From assembly GCA_964514595.1 (NCBI GenBank), contig CAZEQZ010000001.1:331847-395846 (forward strand): 64,000 bases of DNA, written 5' to 3'. The first letter of the stretch is position 1, and every line of letters starts with the position of its first letter. A program made the translations under genes and the position numbers. Under the pieces are notes generated by a model that saw only the letters and a program-made list of their open reading frames with translations, did no database searches and had not been told where the DNA came from. This stretch comes from an uncultured Candidatus Saccharibacteria bacterium. GTDB lineage: Bacteria > Patescibacteriota > Dojkabacteria > SC72. Below are positions 7,411 through 61,408 of the stretch, in pieces.

Positions 7411-7517
7411 TTATATATGTTAACAAATTTAGTTAAGTATTACAGCCTATTTACTATGGGGCTGTCGGGGTAGTATAATTTGTTGTTCTATTAAAACTAA
7501 AAAAAGGAGAAGGAAAA

Positions 7518-14311: not shown

Positions 14312-17300
14312 TTAGGATTTCCTTTTCTTAAGAATTAGTAGGATTCCAACTGTGAGTATTAATCCTGTACCTATGTATATGTATAGAAGATATTCTTTTT
14401 TAATCTTATTCATCTCTATGTTCATTTCTATGGTTGTTTTTTCCACCTCTATCTCCTCACTTTCATATGTTTCGTATCCATCTAGTTCAACCTTTATTTT
14501 ATAAGTACCAGGTTCTACTAAGAATTGGTATTCTCCATGTGTATTGGTATATTGTGGATTATTTGCTATACCATATATATTCCAGTCATCATCTAATTTG
14601 GCATATAGTGTTACTTGTGCATTACTGAGTCTTAACTCATTCTCATCAATTTTTTCGTACACGAAACCGTATGGGTCTACTAATACCTCCAACTTCATTC
14701 TCACGGATGTATTATCATCAAACATTGCTAATATATTCAAATCATATGTCCCTAAAGAGTTGAATATATCCATCTTGGTTTCGTAGAAGTAGGATGTACT
14801 ATCTAGGGCTAGTTTTGTGATTTCTCCATTACTCTCTATGTATACTCCTTTAATAGAAGAGTTGGGGTTCAAGGAGGATATTGTGTTGATTGGGATTCCA
14901 ACATCTAGCGTGTTATTGGCGTATATTGAGAGCTTTGTTTTTTCATTTACAGAAATATTTTTCTCCCCCAAAGTTATTGTTACTTTATCATTATCCTTAA
15001 TTGTTTTTATTGGAGTAGCAGTATCTTTGATTGTATCTAGAACTGCTTTCTTTTCTTCCGATGTTAATTTATTAGATTGCTCTTTAGGGATTTCCATAGG
15101 AGGCTCTTCTGTCACAGGAGGTGGAGTTGGAGATTGTGTAGTTGACGGTGTGGTTGGAGGTTGAACAGTAGAGGCTTTGGTATAACAAGTTGTGCTCTCG
15201 GAGTATGCTGTTTCAATAGCATCTCCGTTGCGAGCTTTAACTCTAAATGTATAGGCAGTAGATGGTGTTAACGATTTCACCGTGTACGAATTGTTAGTAG
15301 TGAATTCTGTAAATGTCCCCCACTGAACTGTATCTGAAAGTACACCTAATGTCTTGTCTAAATATTTATTACTACTAGACTCGTTAATTAATATATTCGT
15401 ATTATCGGGATTAGAATTTTTCTCTACAGAAAGAGTTATAGTAGTAGATGTGGTGGTCAGACAGGATATCGTAGGAGTATTCGCCAGGGTATATCTAGAT
15501 AAGGTAGAAGAACTACTTGTCTCTATACTTTCCGCATTTCTAGCCTTCACAGAATAGCTATACTGTGTGTTTGGAATTAAATTCAAAGAGGAATCTGTAC
15601 TATTTTGAACCCATTCATTGATTCCAGTATTACAATTGGAAGAAGAGCATGAGAAAAGGAGGCCTGATGATACTTGTTCTAGATTATTAACATTAGTCGC
15701 ATACAAAGTTATAGAAGTTGAGGTAAGGGCTGTAGCTGTTAAGTTAGGGATATCACTTAATGTATATTGGGAGATCGTGGAAGAGTATCCACTCTCTATA
15801 CCTTCAGCATTACGTGCTTTGGCCTTGTAAGAATACTGTGTATTTGGTTGCAGAGAAGAGGATGTTGCCGTACTATTTTGTACCCATGTATTTATACCCG
15901 TATTACATCCACTATTTATACAATTAAACAGAATTCCTGATGTGCCTGAGGATAAATTGGTTGCATTTGTAACATTTAATCCAATTGAATTTTTGTTAAC
16001 AGTTCCGAAGGTAAGTACTGGTATGTCAGCAAAGGTGTATTTACTAGTTTCCTCAGAGTAATTACTATCCCCTAGGATATTGTAGGAAGAAATTTTTCTT
16101 CGATATTGGGTGTTAGGTAATAGATTGATTTCTTCAATATAGCTCAAATCAGAAGTTTCTTCTGTTTCTATCAAGGAATTATCATAATTATATAGTTTAA
16201 AACCTAATTCATTATCTGAATTGTCTGTAAAATTCCATCTTATACTTGAAGTTGAGATAGTTTCAGGAGTCTCAATTGTAGGGGCAAGTGGAGCTTGATC
16301 ATATGATAATGAAATATCGTCTAAAACTGGTGTTGCTACGCCTTCGTCATTATCAAATTCTATTTTATAATAGAAGGAATCTGTTTCCCAATCTAGGGAT
16401 GAAAGATCTATAGAGTTGCTATTTCCTTGTACAAGAGTATCAGATCCATCTTCTACCCCTCCTGAGTTATACCACGTTGTTGCATCTGTACTAAATTGTG
16501 CAGTTGCGGAAGTCCCAGAGGGTAAAGAGGATATGGAGTAATCAAATGAAATCATTTTCATATTCTCATCTCCAGGAAGAATGTCTAAAGATTGTATAGA
16601 AGTTTGATTTTGGTATTGAGGAAGTTGAGTGGTATGTGCCAAAGGAGTTGTTGTCCCAGATATCGAGGACACATAATCAATATGAATTCTTCCATCACCA
16701 CCGTTTCCTCCACTGTATGCACCTGTACCTCCAATACCTCCATTTGCAGTTACTTTGTCATTTCCTAAGGTTATACTGTTTGTATATAATTTAACAGAGC
16801 CTCCTGCACCACCACCACCACCACCGCTATACGCTCCTGCATTACTTCCATCTGCTCCATTAGCGTTCACAGAGCCATTTGCTCCAACAACTACATTTTG
16901 TCCATATATGTATACAATTCCTCCACCTGCTCCGCCTGCTCCTGTAGAGGTTGGTGATCCACTTCCTCCAGAACCACCGCCAGCTCCAAGAAAAAGAAGA
17001 GAAAGATCTGCTACTCCATAATTACCACCACCACCACCTCCTCCTGCATACGCTTCTCCCGATACTCCTCCACAATACGCATTTCCTCCAGTACCACTAT
17101 TATCTCCACCATCTCCACCATTTTGATATCCACTTCCTCCTCCTCCTCCTGTTCCATATCCACCACCACCACCACCACCACCTTTGGTTTTCGTTAACAA
17201 ATTGCCCAAAGAAGTTCCACCGCCACCACCCGCACCTCCAACTCCACCAGTACCACCAATACCACAATCAACAGGGCCATTGTCACTGTATACATAGAAG

Positions 17301-18652
17301 ATGAGATCGTGAGTATTGTCCGCTTGCCAATTAGTACCATCATGAGACACCCTGTTTCCCCCATGCGTGGGGCTTGTTGAATCAGCCCCTATCAATACCT
17401 TATTACTAGAATTTCCACCTGTATACTCTAAAACCACAACATAGTTAGTTCCGTTAGTAAGGGTAATTCTCTCATCACCAGAAAAGTTGAAATTTATTAA
17501 CGCAATAGTGGTTGTTAATGTTGATACATCGAAGGCGTCTGATGTGGCAAGCAAAGTGTCCGGAACAGAAGATGTCCCAAAAGTTCCACTATGGGAGTAT
17601 ATCTTTGCATATCCATTTCCCGTTGGAGAACCACTCTTTTTCATATAGAGTTTAAGACTATCGATAGCTCCACCATTACCTGTAAAGGACTGACCCTGTT
17701 TTCCGTTTGCTCCATATATATCAAAATTTGTACTAACATAATTGGTATTAGCGTAATTGTCTACATTTGCAATCTTTAAATACATTCCACCACCACCTCC
17801 ACCACCGGCATATGTCTCGTTCTCTCCATTTTCGTTTCCGTAAGTGAGTTTCCCGGCATTTTGAGCCCTACCTTTTGCATAATCTGCACCTCTTTCTCCA
17901 CTGCTTGTACAAGATAGGGAGCAGGCAGTACCTCCAGGAAAGCCCTTTGTCGCTCCATTTATAGAACCATTAATCGCAACTGTACCTGTGGCTTTAAAAA
18001 AAATGACACCGGCATTAGCAAGTAACGATTTAGTGTCAGAAGTAATAGCAAATCCCTCGTTTACCGTTACATCTGTATATTGAGGAACTCTAATAATGGC
18101 TATATTATTTGAAGAGTAGTATGTGTTTTGTAAGTTGGTTTCGAAAGTCAATGTATCCCCAGTTATATTAGAAATAGTAACTGTCTCATACTGTCCTGTA
18201 TACTGTGCGAAAGAGGATAAACCATCTTGAGTTATTATTAATACCTCATCTCCCACAGCTAATCCGTTTAATGTAGATGTACTTAAACGCATTTGGTTTG
18301 TACCAGCATTTGCGGTATAAGTACTATACTTCTGAAACCGTACAGCATCTCCGTATGCCCTTCCCACACATGACTGTGTGTTGATATTCATATTACTTGA
18401 TACAGTACAGGCTCCATCAGCACCTGTTCCAAAGGTGTATGATCTTGTCGATGCAGAAATTTGACCTCCTGAAAGTATATAGTTTGATGAATTTACAGCG
18501 TCGATATATGTATCATCTATAAAAGCGTCATTAACAGTATATGCATTTACATCTTTATAGTAATTATCTTTTAAAAAAAGAAAAAACAAAGAACAGAGTA
18601 TTGATGCTATCAGTATAATTGTCAAAATTCTACGACCTCTGGTGCGGGGCAT
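14312..18652 (-). CDS. Giant cell-surface protein with N-terminal signal anchor, Gly-rich (poly-G/GGxGG) region, tandem FN3-like repeats, CarboxypepD_reg-like domain and C-terminal TM anchor
   Basis: 1446 aa. N-terminus MPRTRGRRILTIILIASILCSLFFLF. Long GGGGGG/GGxGGxG tracts. At least four FN3-like units ending PNTQYSYKAKARN / PNTQYSYSVKARN / PSTAYTFRVKARN. Motif YGIANNPQYTNTHGEYQFLVEPGTYKIKVELDGYE near the C-terminus. C-terminal TM helix plus a KKRKS tail. Confidence 0.7.
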   Translation of the reverse strand: MPRTRGRRILTIILIASILCSLFFLFLKDNYYKDVNAYTVNDAFIDDTYIDAVNSSNYILSGGQISASTRSYTFGTGADGACTVSSNMNINTQSCVGRAYGDAVRFQKYSTYTANAGTNQMRLSTSTLNGLAVGDEVLIITQDGLSSFAQYTGQYETVTISNITGDTLTFETNLQNTYYSSNNIAIIRVPQYTDVTVNEGFAITSDTKSLLANAGVIFFKATGTVAINGSINGATKGFPGGTACSLSCTSSGERGADYAKGRAQNAGKLTYGNENGENETYAGGGGGGGMYLKIANVDNYANTNYVSTNFDIYGANGKQGQSFTGNGGAIDSLKLYMKKSGSPTGNGYAKIYSHSGTFGTSSVPDTLLATSDAFDVSTLTTTIALINFNFSGDERITLTNGTNYVVVLEYTGGNSSNKVLIGADSTSPTHGGNRVSHDGTNWQADNTHDLIFYVYSDNGPVDCGIGGTGGVGGAGGGGGTSLGNLLTKTKGGGGGGGGYGTGGGGGSGYQNGGDGGDNSGTGGNAYCGGVSGEAYAGGGGGGGNYGVADLSLLFLGAGGGSGGSGSPTSTGAGGAGGGIVYIYGQNVVVGANGSVNANGADGSNAGAYSGGGGGGAGGSVKLYTNSITLGNDKVTANGGIGGTGAYSGGNGGDGRIHIDYVSSISGTTTPLAHTTQLPQYQNQTSIQSLDILPGDENMKMISFDYSISSLPSGTSATAQFSTDATTWYNSGGVEDGSDTLVQGNSNSIDLSSLDWETDSFYYKIEFDNDEGVATPVLDDISLSYDQAPLAPTIETPETISTSSIRWNFTDNSDNELGFKLYNYDNSLIETEETSDLSYIEEINLLPNTQYRRKISSYNILGDSNYSEETSKYTFADIPVLTFGTVNKNSIGLNVTNATNLSSGTSGILFNCINSGCNTGINTWVQNSTATSSSLQPNTQYSYKAKARNAEGIESGYSSTISQYTLSDIPNLTATALTSTSITLYATNVNNLEQVSSGLLFSCSSSNCNTGINEWVQNSTDSSLNLIPNTQYSYSVKARNAESIETSSSSTLSRYTLANTPTISCLTTTSTTITLSVEKNSNPDNTNILINESSSNKYLDKTLGVLSDTVQWGTFTEFTTNNSYTVKSLTPSTAYTFRVKARNGDAIETAYSESTTCYTKASTVQPPTTPSTTQSPTPPPVTEEPPMEIPKEQSNKLTSEEKKAVLDTIKDTATPIKTIKDNDKVTITLGEKNISVNEKTKLSIYANNTLDVGIPINTISSLNPNSSIKGVYIESNGEITKLALDSTSYFYETKMDIFNSLGTYDLNILAMFDDNTSVRMKLEVLVDPYGFVYEKIDENELRLSNAQVTLYAKLDDDWNIYGIANNPQYTNTHGEYQFLVEPGTYKIKVELDGYETYESEEIEVEKTTIEMNIEMNKIKKEYLLYIYIGTGLILTVGILLILKKRKS
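15290..16250 (-). repeat. Intragenic tandem repeats (about 270-285 bp units encoding FN3-like domains) within the giant surface protein gene
   Basis: DNA-level similarity between blocks near 15520-15580 and 15790-15840 (both encode PNTQYSY..KARNAE). Repeated protein units of about 90-95 aa. Confidence 0.5.
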
Positions 18653-25908: not shown

Positions 25909-26028
25909 AGATATAATGTATCACAGAGATATTGGAAGAGCAAGGTTTATTGAAGAAGTATGCCCCATAGTGATATAATCCATGTTGCCGTCAAATTGCT
26001 CATAAAAACATAAAAAAGGGAGATAGAA

Positions 26029-40131: not shown

Positions 40132-40292
40132 TTCTAGATTCAGTATATATATGAATATGTATAGGGTCAATTATGGGGGTATTGTTAGAATATATTGAAA
40201 GTGTTTTATCCTGAAAAAAGCACCCAGAGGATACAAATAAACACTATGGGGTGCAAGTGGGTGTTGGGGGAAATTTAGTAAAAATAGATTCT

Positions 40293-40706
40293 TTATTTAG
40301 TTAATTCTGTACATTTGAATGTATTAACTTTTCTGCCATTTGAAATACCTTGATCAGAGAATGAACAACCTGTACCACAGGAATAGTCCCAGTTTCCTTC
40401 CTTTAAATCTTTCTTGTCTGCTTCCTTTTTTGCCCATTCACGACATTCTTCTAGTGTTTTAAACTGTCCATCATCAATAATAGAATGAGAACCAGAATAC
40501 CACATAGAGCCGTACCAAGGATATTTTAAATCATGTTCCTCATCTTTCTCCATAGCAAGGTTAATCAAAAATCCTACGAAAATAATACCTACGACATATT
40601 TTAATAGGGTTAAACAACCTGTAGCAACCTTCTTTTTAGTGGAGATTTCTTCTTTAGGTTCATCTACAAAGTATGTATGATTATTCATACTTATTAATAA
40701 TAACAC
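40293..40706 (-). CDS. Hypothetical membrane-anchored Cys-containing protein
   Basis: 137 aa. TM helix GCLTLLKYVVGIIFVGFLINLAM. C-terminal domain with 6 Cys. Confidence 0.35.
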   Translation of the reverse strand: MLLLISMNNHTYFVDEPKEEISTKKKVATGCLTLLKYVVGIIFVGFLINLAMEKDEEHDLKYPWYGSMWYSGSHSIIDDGQFKTLEECREWAKKEADKKDLKEGNWDYSCGTGCSFSDQGISNGRKVNTFKCTELTK

Positions 40707-40840
40707 AGAAGAATATATACTTTAATAGTAGTGTAAAATCTAGGGGTTAATGGTAGATAAAGTTTAGAAACTTAATACAAAATACTAATCTTATATTACA
40801 CTAGGTAAATAACTTTTTATCAATTTGTTATAATCACCAT

Positions 40841-41611
40841 ATGGAACAACAAGAAATACCATTTTCATCAGGAGAATCTAATAGAAATGTTGTAAAAGTA
40901 GGAGATACTGTAAGAAAAGAACCAGCTGAAAATTGTGAATTTGTTAGAAAGGTAATGACTGAATTAACAAATAACAATTTTAATTATTCTCCTAAGTACT
41001 TAGGTGTAGATGACAAAGGTAGGGAGATAATGACATATGTAGAAGGAGAACAAATGAATCACACTGAAATATCATTAGATTTAATGAAACAAACATTTGG
41101 TGCCTTAAGACAGTTTCATGATATTTTCTCAAAGTCTGAACTGAAAGGAGCTGAAGAGACTTTAATACATACGGATTTTGCACCGTGGAATTTAATTGTA
41201 AAAGATAATAAGTTAGTTGGGGTACTTGATTTTGATGATGTTAAACCTGGAAGAAGAATCTCTGATGTAGCATATGTATGTTGGACCTTTTTAGATATTG
41301 GTTCTACTGATTCAAATTTCACAGAGGAAGAGGTATATAGATATCTTCAAGATCTTATAAAGGCATATGGGTATATAGATACTTCTGATTTTGTAGATGT
41401 ATTACTTTTGGAACAAAATAGAATTTTAAAATATCGAGAAGGAAGAGTTGAGGAAGTTGAAGAAGGGGATGAGAAGGAATATAGAAAAGTATTATGTGAA
41501 GAGATTAGAAAGGAGATAGAATGGGTTAAAAGAAATAGAGAGAACATAGATAGAGCTTTGGGAGGTAATAATGGGGTGGATGATACAAGATCTCTGGAAA
41601 TTTCTTCTTAA
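40841..41611 (+). CDS. Aminoglycoside/choline-kinase-like phosphotransferase (APH family)
   Basis: Catalytic loop IHTDFAPWNLIV and DFDDVKPGRRISDVAY match the APH/CHK Brenner and DFG-like motifs. An extended -10 TGTTATAAT lies 6 nt before the ATG, suggesting a leaderless transcript. Confidence 0.6.
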   Translation: MEQQEIPFSSGESNRNVVKVGDTVRKEPAENCEFVRKVMTELTNNNFNYSPKYLGVDDKGREIMTYVEGEQMNHTEISLDLMKQTFGALRQFHDIFSKSELKGAEETLIHTDFAPWNLIVKDNKLVGVLDFDDVKPGRRISDVAYVCWTFLDIGSTDSNFTEEEVYRYLQDLIKAYGYIDTSDFVDVLLLEQNRILKYREGRVEEVEEGDEKEYRKVLCEEIRKEIEWVKRNRENIDRALGGNNGVDDTRSLEISS

Positions 41612-41762
41612 AAATTGATTAAAAGGAACAAGAATTGCCGATAGGGGTTATATATAAAAATGCAGAAAGTTCTGCTTATAACCCCTATCTGCCAAATATT
41701 AAATTTGGACTTTTCCTATTTCAGAGATTCATTTTTAATTGAAATACCAGGAAGGAAGTCAC

Positions 41763-42857
41763 CTAGGGAACAGAAATTAGGAAATTTCCTAAATCACTTG
41801 TATACAAGGGTAATTTCCCGTCCCAGTTACTCCATTTTATGTAATCAATGAGACTTCCACTTATGGAGTTAGCAAGTATTTTATTTGCTTCGGCTTGAGC
41901 TTCTGCTTCAACTAAAATTGAAGCTGCCTTGGCTTCTGCTTGCTTAATAGCAACTTGCTTTTGACCTTCGGCAGTAGCAACTGATTGTTTTGCTTCTGCT
42001 TCTTTGACTGCAATTTCCTGTTCTGCCACTTTTGCGTTTTCCTGGGCTACAAGAGCATTGTTAAGACTTATTTCGAGGTCACCATTTATTCCAAGCTGAG
42101 GTTTTCTGAATCCGAACATAATTAACTCAAGCCCGCCCTGTCGCATGATTATTTCTAGTTCCTCTGTTACAGAACTGTCAACATTGTCTACTTCCAAATA
42201 GAGCTTCTTTGCATCAAATTCTTGAGCTTTTTGGCGTGTTATAACCCTAGCTGGGAATTTAACAGATTGGGATATTGCATTTGCAAGTGTTCCATATCTT
42301 TCATAAACAGTTAAAGCTTGTTCAGGAACAAGTCTTCCTTGAATTGTATATGTTAAACTCGCTTGTGCACCATTCTGTGTAATCAGTGTCGTTGGGAAAT
42401 CGCGATAATCTTCGTTTCCGCTTGATGGATTGAGCATTGTCGCGTAAGTCCAGTCCCGAGTGCTAAAAAGTACTATTCTGTCAACATACGGAATTACGGT
42501 ATTTAGTCCTGGATTCCTTACTTCGATTGCTTTACCCATGCGAACCAAGACACCAACTTCTCCCTGATCAATAGATATAAAGCTTCCAATCATAAGTGAC
42601 ATTACGCTACAAACAATGATTGTCAAATATATGAGCAATTTTTTGTTTTTAATTTCTAATCCACTTATTGCCCATATTGCGATACCAATAACTACTAAAA
42701 ACCCTAGCGCAACAAATGGGCTAGATCCAGCAGTTTTGGTATTAAGTGTGGATTCAATATAATCTTGTTGAGCTGCTTGAGATACAATTTCTGCAGCAGG
42801 AGCACAACTAACAAGTAGTGCAAGTAAAACAATAATCCAAAATCTTTTTGTTTTCAT
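41763..42857 (-). CDS. SPFH/band-7 (HflK/C-prohibitin-like) membrane protein
   Basis: N-terminal signal or lipobox-like LLVSC. TM helix. Band-7 core (QGEVGVLVRMGKAIEVRNPGLN). C-terminal Ala/Glu/Gln-rich coiled coil. GAGGAG Shine-Dalgarno. Confidence 0.65.
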   Translation of the reverse strand: MKTKRFWIIVLLALLVSCAPAAEIVSQAAQQDYIESTLNTKTAGSSPFVALGFLVVIGIAIWAISGLEIKNKKLLIYLTIIVCSVMSLMIGSFISIDQGEVGVLVRMGKAIEVRNPGLNTVIPYVDRIVLFSTRDWTYATMLNPSSGNEDYRDFPTTLITQNGAQASLTYTIQGRLVPEQALTVYERYGTLANAISQSVKFPARVITRQKAQEFDAKKLYLEVDNVDSSVTEELEIIMRQGGLELIMFGFRKPQLGINGDLEISLNNALVAQENAKVAEQEIAVKEAEAKQSVATAEGQKQVAIKQAEAKAASILVEAEAQAEANKILANSISGSLIDYIKWSNWDGKLPLYTSDLGNFLISVP

Positions 42858-42965
42858 TTTTTCTCCTCATTTATTATTTTGAAGTCCGAAATAGGATTTT
42901 TAAAGATCATCAGAGAAATAATATATATTTCATTGATGTGCTAATTATACAAAAAAACAAGCGAG

Positions 42966-42995
42966 ATTACTATGGGATGTGGGGTCGATGGTGGG
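42966..42995 (+). repeat. Imperfect direct-repeat copy (25/30 identical) of the tRNA-His 3' end plus 12 nt downstream: candidate att-site scar
   Basis: Minus-strand CCCACCATCGACCCCACATCCCATAGTAAT here versus CCCATCATCCACCCCATACCCCATAGTATT at 43543-43572 (tRNA 3' end). Confidence 0.5.
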
Positions 42996-43151
42996 TAGAG
43001 TTTAGGAACAGTTTTTATGGAATAAATGGTGTTAATAATACTATGAAATTAATCATATAAAAAAGAAAATAACTAGGATAATGATTTTTGATGGTTCACC
43101 ATCCTAGTTATAATGTAAAAGAGCCTTAATTCATTGAATTCGAATAACTAT

Positions 43152-43457
43152 TTAATCACTAAATACGTCTTCGAGTTCCTCGAATAATTGATGTAAGCCT
43201 GGTCCAGGACATTCGTCCTTAAGTGAACAGTTCTCACAATCTGGCTCTTCTTCGGGTTGCAGCATATCCCAAAGTTGGTTGAGGGCCAATGGGAGTTCTT
43301 CTGCATCTACAGCGGCGCGAAAGGTATTTTCGCCCTGGTCATTCTCACCAATTATTGCAAAAGTTTTTGGTCTTTTGGGAATTCTGTGAGTAACAACCTT
43401 TCGAGCTAGTTCCACGCCTTCACCTTGAAAAACTTGATTTCCAATCTTGATTTTCAT
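43152..43457 (-). CDS. Hypothetical acidic protein (higher GC), lying between the tRNA-His repeat copies
   Basis: 101 aa. Own extended -10 promoter (TGATATAAT) and AAAGGAG Shine-Dalgarno. GC about 45% versus about 33% for the window. No family recognised. Confidence 0.4.
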   Translation of the reverse strand: MKIKIGNQVFQGEGVELARKVVTHRIPKRPKTFAIIGENDQGENTFRAAVDAEELPLALNQLWDMLQPEEEPDCENCSLKDECPGPGLHQLFEELEDVFSD

Positions 43458-43554
43458 CTTTTCTCCTTTAAAGAACGATTTGGATTATGGACAGAAGTCC
43501 ACTGTATAAAGCAATTATATCAAATATAATAAAGAGGGACAATACTATGGGGTA

Positions 43555-43632
43555 TGGGGTGGATGATGGGCTTTGAACCCACAACCCTCGGTTCCACAAA
43601 CCGATGCTCTAACCAATTGAGCTACATCCACC
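43555..43632 (-). tRNA. tRNA-His (anticodon GUG) with genome-encoded G(-1) and encoded 3' CCA
   Basis: Manual fold: acceptor stem GUGGAUG/CAUCCAC, D-stem GCUC/GAGC, anticodon stem UCGGU/ACCGA, anticodon loop UUGUGGA (anticodon GUG), T-stem GUGGG/CCCAU. An extra 5' G pairs with the discriminator C. Confidence 0.85.
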
Positions 43633-44543: not shown

Positions 44544-46331
44544 CTATTTTACAGTAACAGATTTTGCTAGATTCCTAGGTTTATCTATACTATTACCTAA
44601 TTCTAAAGAAAGAAAATATGATATTAATTGAAAAGGTATTACGTTAGATATACTACTCAATGTATTTATTTGAGGTGTAGGTATGAAATCATCAAATATG
44701 TCTAATTTAGAGTATTCAGAGCTCCCTATGCCGATTGTATGAGCTCCCCTGGCCTTTACCTGCTCCATAGCACTAATTATATCCTTATTATCATCTGTAT
44801 GTTCATTAGAAGGTACTATACCTATTACAGGAGTACCCTTCTCTATCAATGCTATAACTCCATGCTTAAGTTCCCCTGCAGAAAAGCCCTCTACATGCTT
44901 ATACGATATTTCCTTAATCTTAAGTGCACCCTCAAGCGCTATAAAGGAGTTTTCTCCTTTTCCTAGAATAAAGAAGTGTTCATATTTTTTAATGTTCTTG
45001 CATATCTGTTGTATATATTTAAATGTAGAGGGCTTAAATATATCTTTAAGAGAGTTAGAAAGCTCCTTTAATTTTCTCTGTGCAGTTCTGTGCTTTCCTA
45101 TGAGTGACATAGCTACTAAATATCCCCATGCAGTTTGAGATGTGAAGACTTTGGTGGAAGCTACACATATTTCAGGTCCTGCGTTGGTGTAGTATTCATA
45201 ATCTGACATTCTAGATATTGTAGTACCGTACATATTAACAATACTCGCTATCTTGCACCCTCTTTTCTTAAATACTTCCAAAGGCTCAATAGTATCTGCT
45301 GTCTCTCCACTTTGTGAAATTGCTAATATTAGATCTTTAGTAGAGAGAATTGGTAGGTAGCTTCTAAATTCGTAACTTTTTATCTCCTGTGCATCTATTC
45401 CTGCAATTGTTCTTAAAAAGTATGCTATCTGTCCTGCAGCATACCCAGCTGTACCTGCACCTAATATATATACCTTCCTAGATTTTTTAATAGCATCTAA
45501 TATTGGTTGGAGCTCCTTAAGAGTATACTGTGTAGCAAATAGAATTGTTTTCTGTTGCTCTACAATCTCTTTTAACATATAGTGGGCATATTTACCCTTA
45601 GATATATCCTCATACTGATACTTTAGTTCCTTTATTTGAGGTGATACTTTCTTGCCTGTTTTAATATTCGTGATATTAAATTTCTTCCCCTCAATCTCCA
45701 CCATTTCATAATCATCAAGTACGACGATCTTTTTAGTATACGGGGAGAAGGAAAGTGAATCAGATGCCAGATATGTTCCATCTTTTCCTATTCCCACAAC
45801 CAAGGGAGAGCCATTTTTAATTGCATATATTTTCCCTGATTGAGAATCTATTAATGCAACTGTATTTCTTCCTTCTAAGGTTTTGAATACATTTATAAAT
45901 GATTGTTTAAGGGTATTTCCTTTCTTAATCTCTCTTTCTATTAATTTAACAATAACTTCAGTATCTGTTTGAGATTTAAATACATATTTCTCCCTCTTTA
46001 ATTCTTTTTTAAGTTGATCAAAATTCTCCACGATACCATTCTGTACCAAAGTGAAGTCCTTGGATGTGGAGATATGGGGATGGGCGTTTGTTTTTGTAAC
46101 GCCACCGTGTGTAGCCCATCTGGTATGTCCTATTCCAATATTACTCTTAGGAAGCTTTGTTAAATTGGTATCCTTTTTAACAAGCCCTATGTTTTTGTAT
46201 TGATATATCTTCTTTCCATTCAATACTGCAACTCCCCAAGAATCATATCCTCTGTATTCCAATCTCTTGAGTCCTTCAAATACTAAATTGTTTGCAACAT
46301 TAGATCCAGTGTAGCCAAAAATACCGCACAT
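44544..46331 (-). CDS. glmS: Glutamine--fructose-6-phosphate aminotransferase (GlcN6P synthase)
   Basis: N-terminal MCGIFGY (Ntn Cys). Glutaminase domain. Two SIS domains. 595 aa. Confidence 0.9.
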   Translation of the reverse strand: MCGIFGYTGSNVANNLVFEGLKRLEYRGYDSWGVAVLNGKKIYQYKNIGLVKKDTNLTKLPKSNIGIGHTRWATHGGVTKTNAHPHISTSKDFTLVQNGIVENFDQLKKELKREKYVFKSQTDTEVIVKLIEREIKKGNTLKQSFINVFKTLEGRNTVALIDSQSGKIYAIKNGSPLVVGIGKDGTYLASDSLSFSPYTKKIVVLDDYEMVEIEGKKFNITNIKTGKKVSPQIKELKYQYEDISKGKYAHYMLKEIVEQQKTILFATQYTLKELQPILDAIKKSRKVYILGAGTAGYAAGQIAYFLRTIAGIDAQEIKSYEFRSYLPILSTKDLILAISQSGETADTIEPLEVFKKRGCKIASIVNMYGTTISRMSDYEYYTNAGPEICVASTKVFTSQTAWGYLVAMSLIGKHRTAQRKLKELSNSLKDIFKPSTFKYIQQICKNIKKYEHFFILGKGENSFIALEGALKIKEISYKHVEGFSAGELKHGVIALIEKGTPVIGIVPSNEHTDDNKDIISAMEQVKARGAHTIGIGSSEYSKLDIFDDFIPTPQINTLSSISNVIPFQLISYFLSLELGNSIDKPRNLAKSVTVK

Positions 46332-46349: not shown

Positions 46350-46490
46350 TATATTCTTAGGGATTGGTGGTTAGAGTTTGTTTATTTGTAACTAACCTTT
46401 AGGCTAACAATATAGCCTAGGAGTGCCCGCTGATGGCTCGATAGCTCCTGCCTCGTAACAATATCCTTGGTATTGCCCAGCCGCTTCTAT
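46350..46490 (-). ncRNA. Candidate glmS ribozyme in the glmS 5' leader
   Basis: Minus-strand leader GUUACGAGGCAGGAGCUAUCGAGCCAUCAGCGGGCACUCCU matches the conserved glmS ribozyme core (GUUGACGAGGAUGGAGGUUAUCGA...CGGCGG...CCUCC in Bacillus). A P1-like hairpin CAAUA/UAUUG lies upstream, the P3-like hairpin UAGGCUA/UAGCCUA and then UAAAGG follow, and there is a terminal hairpin GGUUAG/CUAACC. The region is locally GC-rich in an AT-rich genome. Confidence 0.5.
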
Positions 46491-46554
46491 GTTAAATAAC
46501 CCTTCGTATATATTACAGGATAGATTTTTGAGGTCAAGTGATATATATTAGAAT

Positions 46555-61196: not shown

Positions 61197-61408
61197 GTTT
61201 ATTATATTACATTTGTTTCTAACCAAAAACAACAACCCCATAGTATTTGCCCCCTTGTTATTATTATGATATAATTTTCTATATTTGATCACTGCTCTTT
61301 CACAAATTACAAGGTTTGATTTCGCGTTTCCATCTATTTTCTGTGTGGAGTACAAAGTATATTTTTGTATTTTTTGTTCTCTACACAGGGATTAAGAAAG
61401 GATATGTC

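Follow-up and report, generated by a model that had tools for sequence, protein, structure and literature searches.

What does it mean that the 3' end of a tRNA gene recurs, imperfectly, 575 bp further downstream, with a single orphan gene lying between the two copies? The question is raised by a locus of an uncultured bacterium deposited as Candidatus Saccharibacteria and placed in the Dojkabacteria by GTDB, within a stretch of 64,000 nucleotides (contig CAZEQZ010000001.1 of assembly GCA_964514595.1, positions 331,847 to 395,846 of the forward strand) that was analysed as a whole and is called the window. A sequence-only reading of this DNA had interpreted the repeat, which begins within tRNA-His, as the scar of an integrase-mediated insertion. 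We favour, with a probability of roughly 0.55, the explanation that the repeat represents the ends of a 575-bp module, carrying one gene and no recombinase, at the 3' end of a tRNA-His that serves as a recurrent landing site, and that it is an att-type scar. The features concerned are:

43555 to 43631, minus strand: tRNA-His (GTG), detected by ARAGORN and by Rfam (tRNA, 67 bits), with the 3' end ...CCACCCCA taken as the attachment core (attB/attL side).
43541 to 43570, minus strand: repeat copy 1, CCCATCATCCACCCCATACCCCATAGTATT, consisting of the last 16 nt of the tRNA (43555-43570) and 14 nt of trailer (43541-43554).
42966 to 42995, minus strand: repeat copy 2, CCCACCATCGACCCCACATCCCATAGTAAT, consisting of 16 nt resembling the tRNA 3' end (42980-42995), CA, and the promoter motif TCCCATAGTAAT (42966-42977).
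41763 to 42857, minus strand: gene for an SPFH/Band 7 membrane protein (Pfam PF01145), the next gene past copy 2.

That the repeat exists was correctly recognised. The two copies agree at 25 of 30 positions (5 mismatches) in the same orientation, at a distance of 575 bp start to start, and a 30-mer with 5 or fewer mismatches was obtained in none of 300 first-order Markov simulations of the window, which places the similarity far beyond chance. Its make-up had been misjudged, as what was described as the tRNA end with 12 nt downstream consists of 16 nt of tRNA and 14 nt of trailer. The tRNA, which is the only one in the window, has its G-1 at 43632 and an encoded CCA. The tRNA-derived 16 nt of copy 2 match its 3' end in register at 14 positions and close with the core ACCCCA; a short core is thereby present on either side of the module, as CCACCCCA in the tRNA and as CGACCCCA at 42980-42987. 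On the trailer side, a 7-nt tandem CCCCATA-CCCCATA (43541-43561) joins the CCA end to a promoter motif in three species (the window, L014 and L026), a position that is taken by a 9-nt spacer, CCAACAATA, in L008. L-numbers designate loci in relatives, which were traced via homologues of the 101-aa protein encoded between the copies, via orthologues of the SPFH protein, or via DUF7489, the upstream neighbour of the tRNA (the route to L029, L032, L034 and L035/L036).

Comparison of these loci provides the strongest evidence that the tRNA is a site of integration. L007 and L008 are 98–99% identical, and L007 carries an additional 6.56 kb inserted exactly after the tRNA, with the 7 nt CACCCCA at both junctions; in L008, the unoccupied counterpart, the tRNA is followed by the promoter of the 101-aa homologue. 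The L007 element is the only one seen whole, and its insertion the only one fully resolved. A second pair, L011 (occupied) and L014 (empty), is 99.7% identical and shares a junction at CCACCCCA, the L011 island there encoding a reverse transcriptase, GmrSD and Eco57I. Insertions in relatives begin exactly after CACCCCA, and across the loci CCACCCC(A) is found next to eight different sequences:

The module, with nothing in between.
The module, set off by a 9-nt spacer.
The L007 element.
The island of L035/L036, with a large serine recombinase (LSR) and a tyrosine integrase.
In L029, the gene for an S subunit of a type I restriction-modification system.
In L034, an ADP-ribosylglycohydrolase gene.
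In L005, a gene for a 133-aa protein, with PIG-L.
In L032, a truncated DUF2238 ORF.

L029 is the closest relative, and its homology to the window ends at the last base of the tRNA. As these comparisons show, tRNA-His is a genuine and repeatedly used landing site for mobile DNA in Candidatus Dojkabacteria, with a core of 7 nt.

The enzyme responsible is probably an LSR. One protein of the L007 element, 499 aa long, combines Resolvase, Recombinase and Zn_ribbon_recom domains and is the only recombinase encoded there; its best NCBIfam matches are XisF, CcrC and CcrB, all below the curated cut-offs. Also encoded are a restriction-modification system (C5 methylase, NgoPII-type endonuclease), a Phage_CRI-like replication protein and SpoVG. 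The putative attP core region of the element reads ACTAACG-CACCCCA-TTCTTTAG. An LSR (Resolvase, Recombinase, zinc-ribbon) is also present in L036, and the L035/L036 island contains a Phage_integrase protein.

The right arm of the elements, AGTTCATAATTATGTCYACTAACCG/ACCCCA (the slash marks the junction), is near-identical in L007, L011, L020 and L025, whereas the L026 version diverges further (about 26/31). The arm imperfectly imitates the 3' half of tRNA-His (GGTTCA...GTCC...CACCCCA) and does not follow the tRNA sequence of the respective host, the hosts differing in their acceptor and T arms. As the arm is borne by the element and is tRNA-like, an "imperfect duplication of the tRNA 3' end" is how such an insertion looks from the outset, and it need not be a decayed copy.

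These data bear directly on a classical interpretation, that of a scar left by a tyrosine integrase, in which the whole 30 bp would be a duplicated att segment and copy 2 a displaced host tRNA fragment in decay. This is the usual pattern of islands in tRNA genes (Islander, PMC4383910), it agrees with copy 2 being nearer to the host tRNA end than to the canonical element arm, and it could draw on an exact 14-nt fragment of the host tRNA further downstream (41571-41584) as well as on the Phage_integrase protein of the L035/L036 island at tRNA-His. We nevertheless consider it very unlikely. The L007/L008 pair shows a duplication of just 7 nt with a recombinase of the serine type only, and the tRNA-like arm travels with the element and does not match the tRNA of each host. 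The last 12 nt of the repeat, moreover, recur as a promoter motif before unlinked genes and before SPFH orthologues without a tRNA nearby, and within 10 kb of the tRNA in the window no gene carries a tyrosine integrase annotation, fragments of such genes not having been searched for. The proposal of an integrase scar at tRNA-His is thus retained with regard to the att-type scar, to the hotspot (L007/L008, L011/L014) and to the position of copy 2, which is where intact right ends sit; it is not supported with regard to the whole repeat being the att site and to a tyrosine-type integrase with a long duplication.

How the module relates to copy 2 is suggested by its conservation. Three other species have the whole 575-bp unit, from the tRNA as far as the distal ACCCCA, and in them the right end is intact. 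In an alignment of the window with L011, L025 and L026, which represent four species, the sequences are collinear from CCCCATAGT to GACCCCA and comprise the promoter, the 5' untranslated region (UTR), the ORF, the terminator and the right end. Past GACCCCA homology stops, and what follows is the SPFH gene in the window and a gene for a 107-aa membrane protein, AbiEii (on the other strand) or another sequence in the relatives. Collinearity that ends at GACCCCA with a different gene beyond it in each species indicates that the module is bounded and that its ends are att-like. The right end of the window copy is present in altered form:

42980 to 43068, minus strand: decayed right end of the module, with a 43-nt deletion, ending in TGTTCCTAAACTCTACCCACCATCG/ACCCCA (43010-42980), at the position that matches the right end of the relatives in the alignment; the sequence following the terminator of the 101-aa gene includes CCCACCATCGACCCCA.

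From its position in the alignment, copy 2 appears to descend from such an intact right end, and the module would not be ancestral DNA but would have arrived by integration. At present it is probably fixed and no longer mobile, newer elements in relatives landing between the tRNA and the module.

We propose the following sequence of events. A recombinase would cross over within the last bases of the tRNA, the core CACCCCA comprising part of the acceptor stem, the discriminator and the CCA. With this core alone duplicated, the tRNA would be left intact; and since the right arm of the element imperfectly imitates the tRNA 3' end, every insertion would yield a tRNA-end-like arm followed by ACCCCA (attR). 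Copy 1 in the window would then be the tRNA itself (the attL side), and the first 16–18 nt of copy 2 would be a fossil and partly decayed attR, while the last 12 nt of both copies are the upstream promoter motif (CCCnATAGTA) of the 101-aa and SPFH genes. The module is a complete expression unit of promoter, 5'-UTR palindrome, ORF, terminator and right end, maintained by selection.

Several results weigh against this explanation, and we list them together. The sample is small, about 240 kb of Dojkabacteria sequence having been examined in total. Outside the core, the right arm of the window agrees with the consensus of the relatives at only 12 of 25 positions (p about 0.03), and although it is the best of the 19 ACCCCA sites in the window, no correction leaves it significant. 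When an nhmmer model built from intact right ends (L011 and L020) was run against the window, it found nothing at copy 2. What speaks for copy 2 is therefore where it sits, in register, in the alignment, together with the exact core and an agreement with the tRNA end at 14 of 16 positions; yet that agreement is closer than the one with the canonical arm (10/16). The distal junction is missing beside the gene in L008/L007/L017/L020, L005/L015, L018 and L019, and three species share exactly the same left junction, CCACCCCA-TA-CCCCATAGT, which is hard to explain by independent decay. No empty site for the module, in which tRNA-His would run straight into CAT-CCCATAGTAAT-SPFH, was found among the loci of SPFH orthologues or of the DUF7489 neighbour; tRNA-His directly followed by SPFH is the arrangement that the sequence-only reading had proposed to look for in related genomes. 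The best SPFH orthologues are only 50% identical and are on short contigs with no tRNA nearby, and tRNA-His loci without the module next to the tRNA (L029, L032, L034, L035) have other DNA there or are too short to judge. Finally, the tRNA-His island of L035/L036 also has a tyrosine integrase, so that LSRs may not be the sole enzymes acting at this tRNA.

The absence of a recombinase from the window, already noted from the sequence, was confirmed. None of the genes within 10 kb of the tRNA has a Pfam annotation of a recombinase family, and a tblastn comparison of all proteins of the L007 element (including the LSR) and of the L011 island with the whole window gave no true match, tyrosine-integrase fragments not being covered by a profile search; the only two matches were spurious, from antisense ORFs that overlap conserved promoter DNA. 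Without a recombinase in the window, the module can be classified only as a remnant or as a non-autonomous unit.

The second of these possibilities deserves separate consideration. The module might be a living, non-autonomous mini-element of about 0.6 kb, similar to pseudo-SCC elements that lack ccr, moved in trans by the serine recombinases of larger elements and having entered tRNA-His independently in several species. Its ends would be ACCCCA/TA-CCCCATAGT on the left and arm/ACCCCA on the right, the circularised module would read arm-ACCCCA-TACCCCATAGT or arm-ACCCCA-TACCCCATAGTATTG, and the excised site would be tRNA-CCACCCCA-CATCCCATAGTAAT. The identical left junction in three species and the right flanks that differ in each of four (SPFH, the 107-aa membrane protein, AbiEii and another sequence) favour such an element, as do the sharp boundaries at both ACCCCA cores, a right arm near-identical to that of a recently integrated LSR element, and the gene-less right-end module of L020 (446-529), which lies upstream of the promoter of the gene. 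We regard it as unlikely all the same. The dS of 0.4–0.7 of the cassette fits old vertical descent, the gene occurs in none of the viral or plasmid collections searched, the window has no recombinase, and serine integrases normally need a directionality factor for recombination of attL with attR (PMC3783163). The old divergence, the decayed right arm of the window with its 43-nt deletion, and the failure to find either a circular form or an empty site (the tRNA running into the SPFH promoter) favour a remnant of a larger element.

Right ends are found in a further context in L020, where positions 417-529 comprise a sequence like copy 2, CCCCACCCATCGACCCATAGTATTC, followed by a gene-less right-end module of 85 nt (446-529) that ends in CTAACCGACCCCA; this lies about 200 nt upstream of the promoter of the 101-aa homologue. 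When viral contigs were scanned for the pattern of the right arm, two chance matches inside coding regions were obtained, neither of them followed by ACCCCA.

Not all of the repeat is related to integration. The last 12 nt of the copies, CCCCATAGTATT and TCCCATAGTAAT, correspond to a promoter motif of the Candidatus Dojkabacteria lineage that is found before many unrelated genes. In about 177 kb of Dojkabacteria DNA, CCCnATAGT is located exactly 24 or 19 nt upstream of TATAAT (usually with a TG extension), always facing the downstream gene, and this fixed spacing to (TG)TATAAT is observed at 15 or more distinct places, among them the SPFH orthologues of L021 and L024 and genes elsewhere in the window that are not linked to the tRNA. 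In the 24-nt class, which includes the promoter of the 101-aa gene in every relative, the motif is directly followed by a TTGnnn -35 element; the SPFH orthologues of L021 and L024 have CCC(G/T)ATAGTATT, 24 nt and TATAAT, with no tRNA nearby. The TCCCATAGTAAT of copy 2 represents the 19-nt-class promoter of the SPFH gene in the window. Within the window, CCCATAGT occurs 7 times against about 1.3 expected, as estimated from base composition, and a related 10-mer pattern matches 9 times against 3.8 expected. Loci unlinked to tRNA-His that carry the motif are window positions 61236, 7461 and 25963 as well as L021, L023 and L024. The positions are:

42944 to 42976, minus strand: SPFH gene promoter, with CCCATAGT (42976-42969), 19 nt, and a TG-extended -10 TATAAT (42949-42944).
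61236 to 61275 (plus strand), 7452 to 7461 (minus), 25963 to 25979 (plus) and 40243 to 40251 (minus): copies of CCCnATAGTA in the window.
L011 8710 and 9944, L007 12446, L021 412/423 and L024 1358: copies of CCCnATAGTA in relatives.

The last 12 nt of the two copies are therefore alike because both are promoters of one class, and not because a tRNA trailer was duplicated. It might be argued that there was no recombination at copy 2 at all, both copies being one regulatory motif (a C-rich element, CCCATAGTA and a -10) that the tRNA merely abuts. The motif is certainly dispersed, has a fixed spacing to the -10 and often follows C-rich DNA (window 40251, 7461 and 61236; L016 and L024), and copy 2 was missed by the statistical search with the intact right end. 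We consider this distinctly unlikely: further promoters of the class lack the CCCAnCATCnACCCCA part, an in-register agreement with the tRNA end at 14 of 16 positions would arise by chance with a probability of about 1e-5 at most, copy 2 in the four-species alignment lies exactly where the other species have intact junctions of arm and core, and ACCCCA is clustered only downstream of the tRNA. The motif accounts for just the last 12 of the 30 nt, and it is those 12 alone that recur elsewhere. If 3 mismatches are allowed, the tRNA-like 16-mer is matched at three further places in the window, namely copy 2 and two others, of which only one (41572) lies near the tRNA; none is at an unlinked promoter. 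That the repeat could prove to be a dispersed promoter motif, a possibility raised in the sequence-only reading, thus applies to its last 12 nt and does not extend to the tRNA-like 16 nt. A general caution follows from this case, namely that a shared promoter element can form part of an apparent att repeat.

The motif CCCnATAGTA may be a lineage-specific promoter or regulator-binding element. Its two spacing classes are 5 nt apart, and instances are clustered downstream of tRNA-His. The copy at window position 61236 is nearly identical to the promoter of the 101-aa gene across about 40 nt.

A more far-reaching proposal is that in Dojkabacteria tRNA-His anchors a cassette array driven by serine recombinases, with the promoter motif doubling as a recombinase half-site. 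If so, very small units with promoters of their own, some without a recombinase, would be inserted, shuffled and deleted at ACCCCA cores; the 101-aa module would be the smallest and most conserved unit, and the promoter class a set of landing pads. The CCCCATAGTA promoter motif does hold a second copy of the core (CCCCA) and resembles a motif bound by the zinc-ribbon domain of a serine integrase (TTTAGTATC; PMC3783163). Hints are provided by the L020 junction CACCCCA/TAGTATTG, by a deletion in L032 that ends at the tRNA core, and by the fact that both the motif and ACCCCA cluster on the downstream side of the tRNA. From the L020 junction, the CCCCA inside the promoter motif may even serve as a crossover core. 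We put this forward as a speculative and rather improbable reading.

In L020, the junction CACCCCA/TAGTATTG belongs to the promoter itself, a crossover core being fused there with the promoter motif. In L032 (1567-1642) and L033 (1497-1572), tRNA-His ends with ...CCACCCC/T, so that the terminal A of the CCA is not encoded, and is fused directly to the C-terminal part of a DUF2238-like ORF, the 101-aa module being absent. The arrangement has the look of a deletion, one end of which fell within the att core.

The gene within the module is, as described previously, a single ORF for an acidic protein of 101 aa with its own promoter, located between the copies. Its expression unit consists of:

43152 to 43457, minus strand: acidic 101-aa orphan ORF, pI 4.5, under purifying selection.
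43514 to 43552, minus strand: promoter, with CCCCATAGTA (43552-43543), -35 TTGTCC (43542-43537), a 17-nt spacer and a TG-extended -10 TATAAT (43519-43514).
43488 to 43501, minus strand: palindrome TGGAC-N4-GTCCA in the 5' UTR, its stems nearly invariant and its 4-nt spacer variable at 9 loci.
43069 to 43111, minus strand: intrinsic terminator hairpin, a 14–16 bp inverted repeat followed by a T-run, conserved in relatives.

The promoter architecture is kept at all related loci examined. Purifying selection is evident from dN/dS values of 0.26–0.33 at a dS of 0.4–0.7. The gene is not recent cargo; it is a conserved resident beside tRNA-His in several species, and newer elements have entered between it and the tRNA (L005, L007, L011). 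The second gene of L011 is not a paralogue, since the 107-aa membrane protein is unrelated to the gene of the module. The protein family is tiny and restricted to the lineage, one search having given 8 clusters (58–100% identity) and an exhaustive profile search of 1.84 billion representatives only 7 members. The protein has no match in Pfam, PHROGs or NCBIfam, and a search for it in mobile-element contexts, which the earlier reading had proposed, found no homologues in IMG/VR, GenBank phages or PLSDB plasmids. An AlphaFold2 (AF2) model (pLDDT 71) has a beta-beta-alpha-beta-beta-alpha fold with a C-terminal helix and gave no Foldseek match in the PDB with an E-value below 0.9. The palindrome (43488-43501) and the first 11 codons (43425-43457, minus strand) are nearly invariant in nucleotide sequence across species, whereas the other codons have the dS given above. 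Such invariance suggests an operator or RNA element that overlaps the start of the gene, and the palindrome itself could be either an operator or an RNA hairpin.

Base composition, to which the previous description had appealed, does not indicate a foreign origin. A GC content of about 45% had been given for the segment; this was overstated, as the ORF has 42.8% GC (within the top 2.3% of windows of the same length) and the segment between the repeats 35.8%, compared to 34.0% for the window, a weak contrast given that 25% of windows are at least as high. The excess of the ORF is confined to codon position 1 (GC1 of 0.63, reflecting acidic, Gly and Ala residues, with a GC3 of 0.33), so that it results from amino-acid composition; composition was therefore rejected as evidence for foreign DNA. 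The highest GC content in the window (up to 51%, at 16700-17300) occurs not in a foreign segment but in a glycine-rich repeat of a surface-protein ORF of 1446 aa (14312-18652, minus strand).

With respect to known systems, the feature behaves like a genomic islet lodged in a tRNA gene, the target being regenerated and the repeat being tRNA-like, and it is filed as a remnant or non-autonomous unit of a known kind. Tycheposon islands of Prochlorococcus carry partial tRNAs and degenerate remnants, LSRs being present on 27 of 937 elements (bioRxiv 10.1101/2020.12.28.424599). In common with these and with tDNA islands of the Islander type (PMC4383910), the locus is bounded by an intact tRNA on one side and by an imperfect copy of the tRNA 3' end on the opposite side; insertions return to one and the same tRNA, newer arrivals displace older DNA, and remnants without a recombinase and partial tRNA-like sequences persist in a streamlined genome. 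It differs in that the resolved relative (L007) has an LSR and a 7-nt core, in that the tRNA likeness is in the arm of the element and not in a displaced host fragment, and in that the unit is 0.6 kb with one gene and one third of the repeat is a promoter motif.

A closer parallel may be the staphylococcal cassette chromosome (SCC) and the pseudo-SCC cassettes without ccr, which, along with composite islands, occupy the 3' end of staphylococcal rlmH (orfX) and are moved by the LSRs CcrAB and CcrC (bioRxiv 10.1101/336396; PMC7029136). The serine recombinase of L007 is distantly Ccr-like (the CcrB and CcrC matches being below cut-off), insertion takes place at the very 3' end of a conserved gene, which is not inactivated, short direct repeats bound the units, units without a recombinase stay beside the target, and several units can occur in series. 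In contrast to SCC, the target is a tRNA, the host belongs to a candidate phylum, the unit is 10 to 100 times smaller, and any mobilisation would be hypothetical. By our comparison, the feature would in enzyme and architecture be closer to SCC/pseudo-SCC than to tDNA islands.

The att sites of phage serine integrases, with attP and attB that have a central dinucleotide and quasi-symmetric half-sites and differ by a 5-bp shift of the distal motif (PMC3783163), also share features with the sites described here. There is a short common core, the arm of the element (P) resembles that of the host (B), and in L007 GGTTCA...GTCC...CACCCCA is present in both arms with about 6 extra nt in the P arm, recalling the 5-bp shift. 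Unlike the phage sites, the right half-sites break the 5-bp rule, and the window has neither attP nor an integrase; the sites are, moreover, defined from sequence comparison. For the Listeria A118-type serine integrase, the recognition motif of the zinc-ribbon domain (ZD) is 5'-TTTAGTATC (PMC3783163). Both L007 3333-3350, in the left arm of the element (TTCTTTAGTTTTG), and the promoter motif CATAGTATTG resemble this ZD motif. The L007/L008 sites do not obey the 5-bp attP/attB spacing rule when the CCCATAGT motif is taken as the recognition motif, so that the resemblance is probably a coincidence.

Integron cassettes likewise consist of single-gene units split by short imperfect repeats beside a fixed site. 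The locus differs from them in having no integron integrase, no attC-type palindrome, and a promoter and terminator for each unit. It is not an integron cassette or a miniature inverted-repeat transposable element (MITE), because there is no palindromic site of the attC type and there are no terminal inverted repeats; identity with an insertion sequence was rejected likewise, no inverted repeat being found at either copy.

Taken alone, the feature in the window is an ordinary island remnant. Bacteria of the candidate phyla radiation (CPR) have tiny genomes, and for their poorly charted mobile DNA the locus provides one concrete recombination hotspot, with the last 7 nt of tRNA-His as the site, a probable enzyme family and a conserved one-gene module. 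It may serve as a marker for delimiting variable DNA in Dojkabacteria assemblies, and the L007 recombinase with its 7-nt-core sites is a candidate pair of genetic tools for organisms that have none.

Further possible scars are present in the same region:

41571 to 41584, minus strand: ATCATCCACCCCAT, an exact 14-nt copy of the tRNA-His 3' end (expected matches far below 1).
40241 to 40275, minus strand: possible older scar and more degenerate copy, CCCCCAACACCCACTTGCACCCCATAGTGTT, between the stop codon and the terminator of a 137-aa gene, with the promoter motif and no -10 at the usual distance.

The former lies within the last 13 codons of an ORF for an APH-family kinase (40841-41611, plus strand) and may be an older att scar that now supplies the C-terminus of the kinase. 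On the strand of the tRNA, ACCCCA is clustered, with 6 of the 13 copies in the window found in the 3.3 kb downstream of the tRNA (40252-43560). The arrangement suggests a small composite islet of several old units at about 40.2 to 43.55 kb.

Among the minor observations, CCCCCAACACCCACTTGCACCCCATAGTG at 40241-40275 of the window resembles CTCCCAACACTCATCCTGTGCCCCATAGTA at L016 1580-1616, upstream of the module of L016, which is flanked by a repeat of its own, TCATCC(T/C)GTGCCCCATAGT, at 1609 and 2245. L007 and L008 also differ by the presence or absence of a 443-aa gene (L007 12430-13875), the left edge of which adjoins the CCCATAGTA motif, and of a 704-aa DUF5980 gene (L008 6427-8665), in both cases with no clean junction repeats. 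Upstream of glmS (44544-46331), a glmS ribozyme is located at 46359-46496 on the minus strand (Rfam, 50.8 bits).

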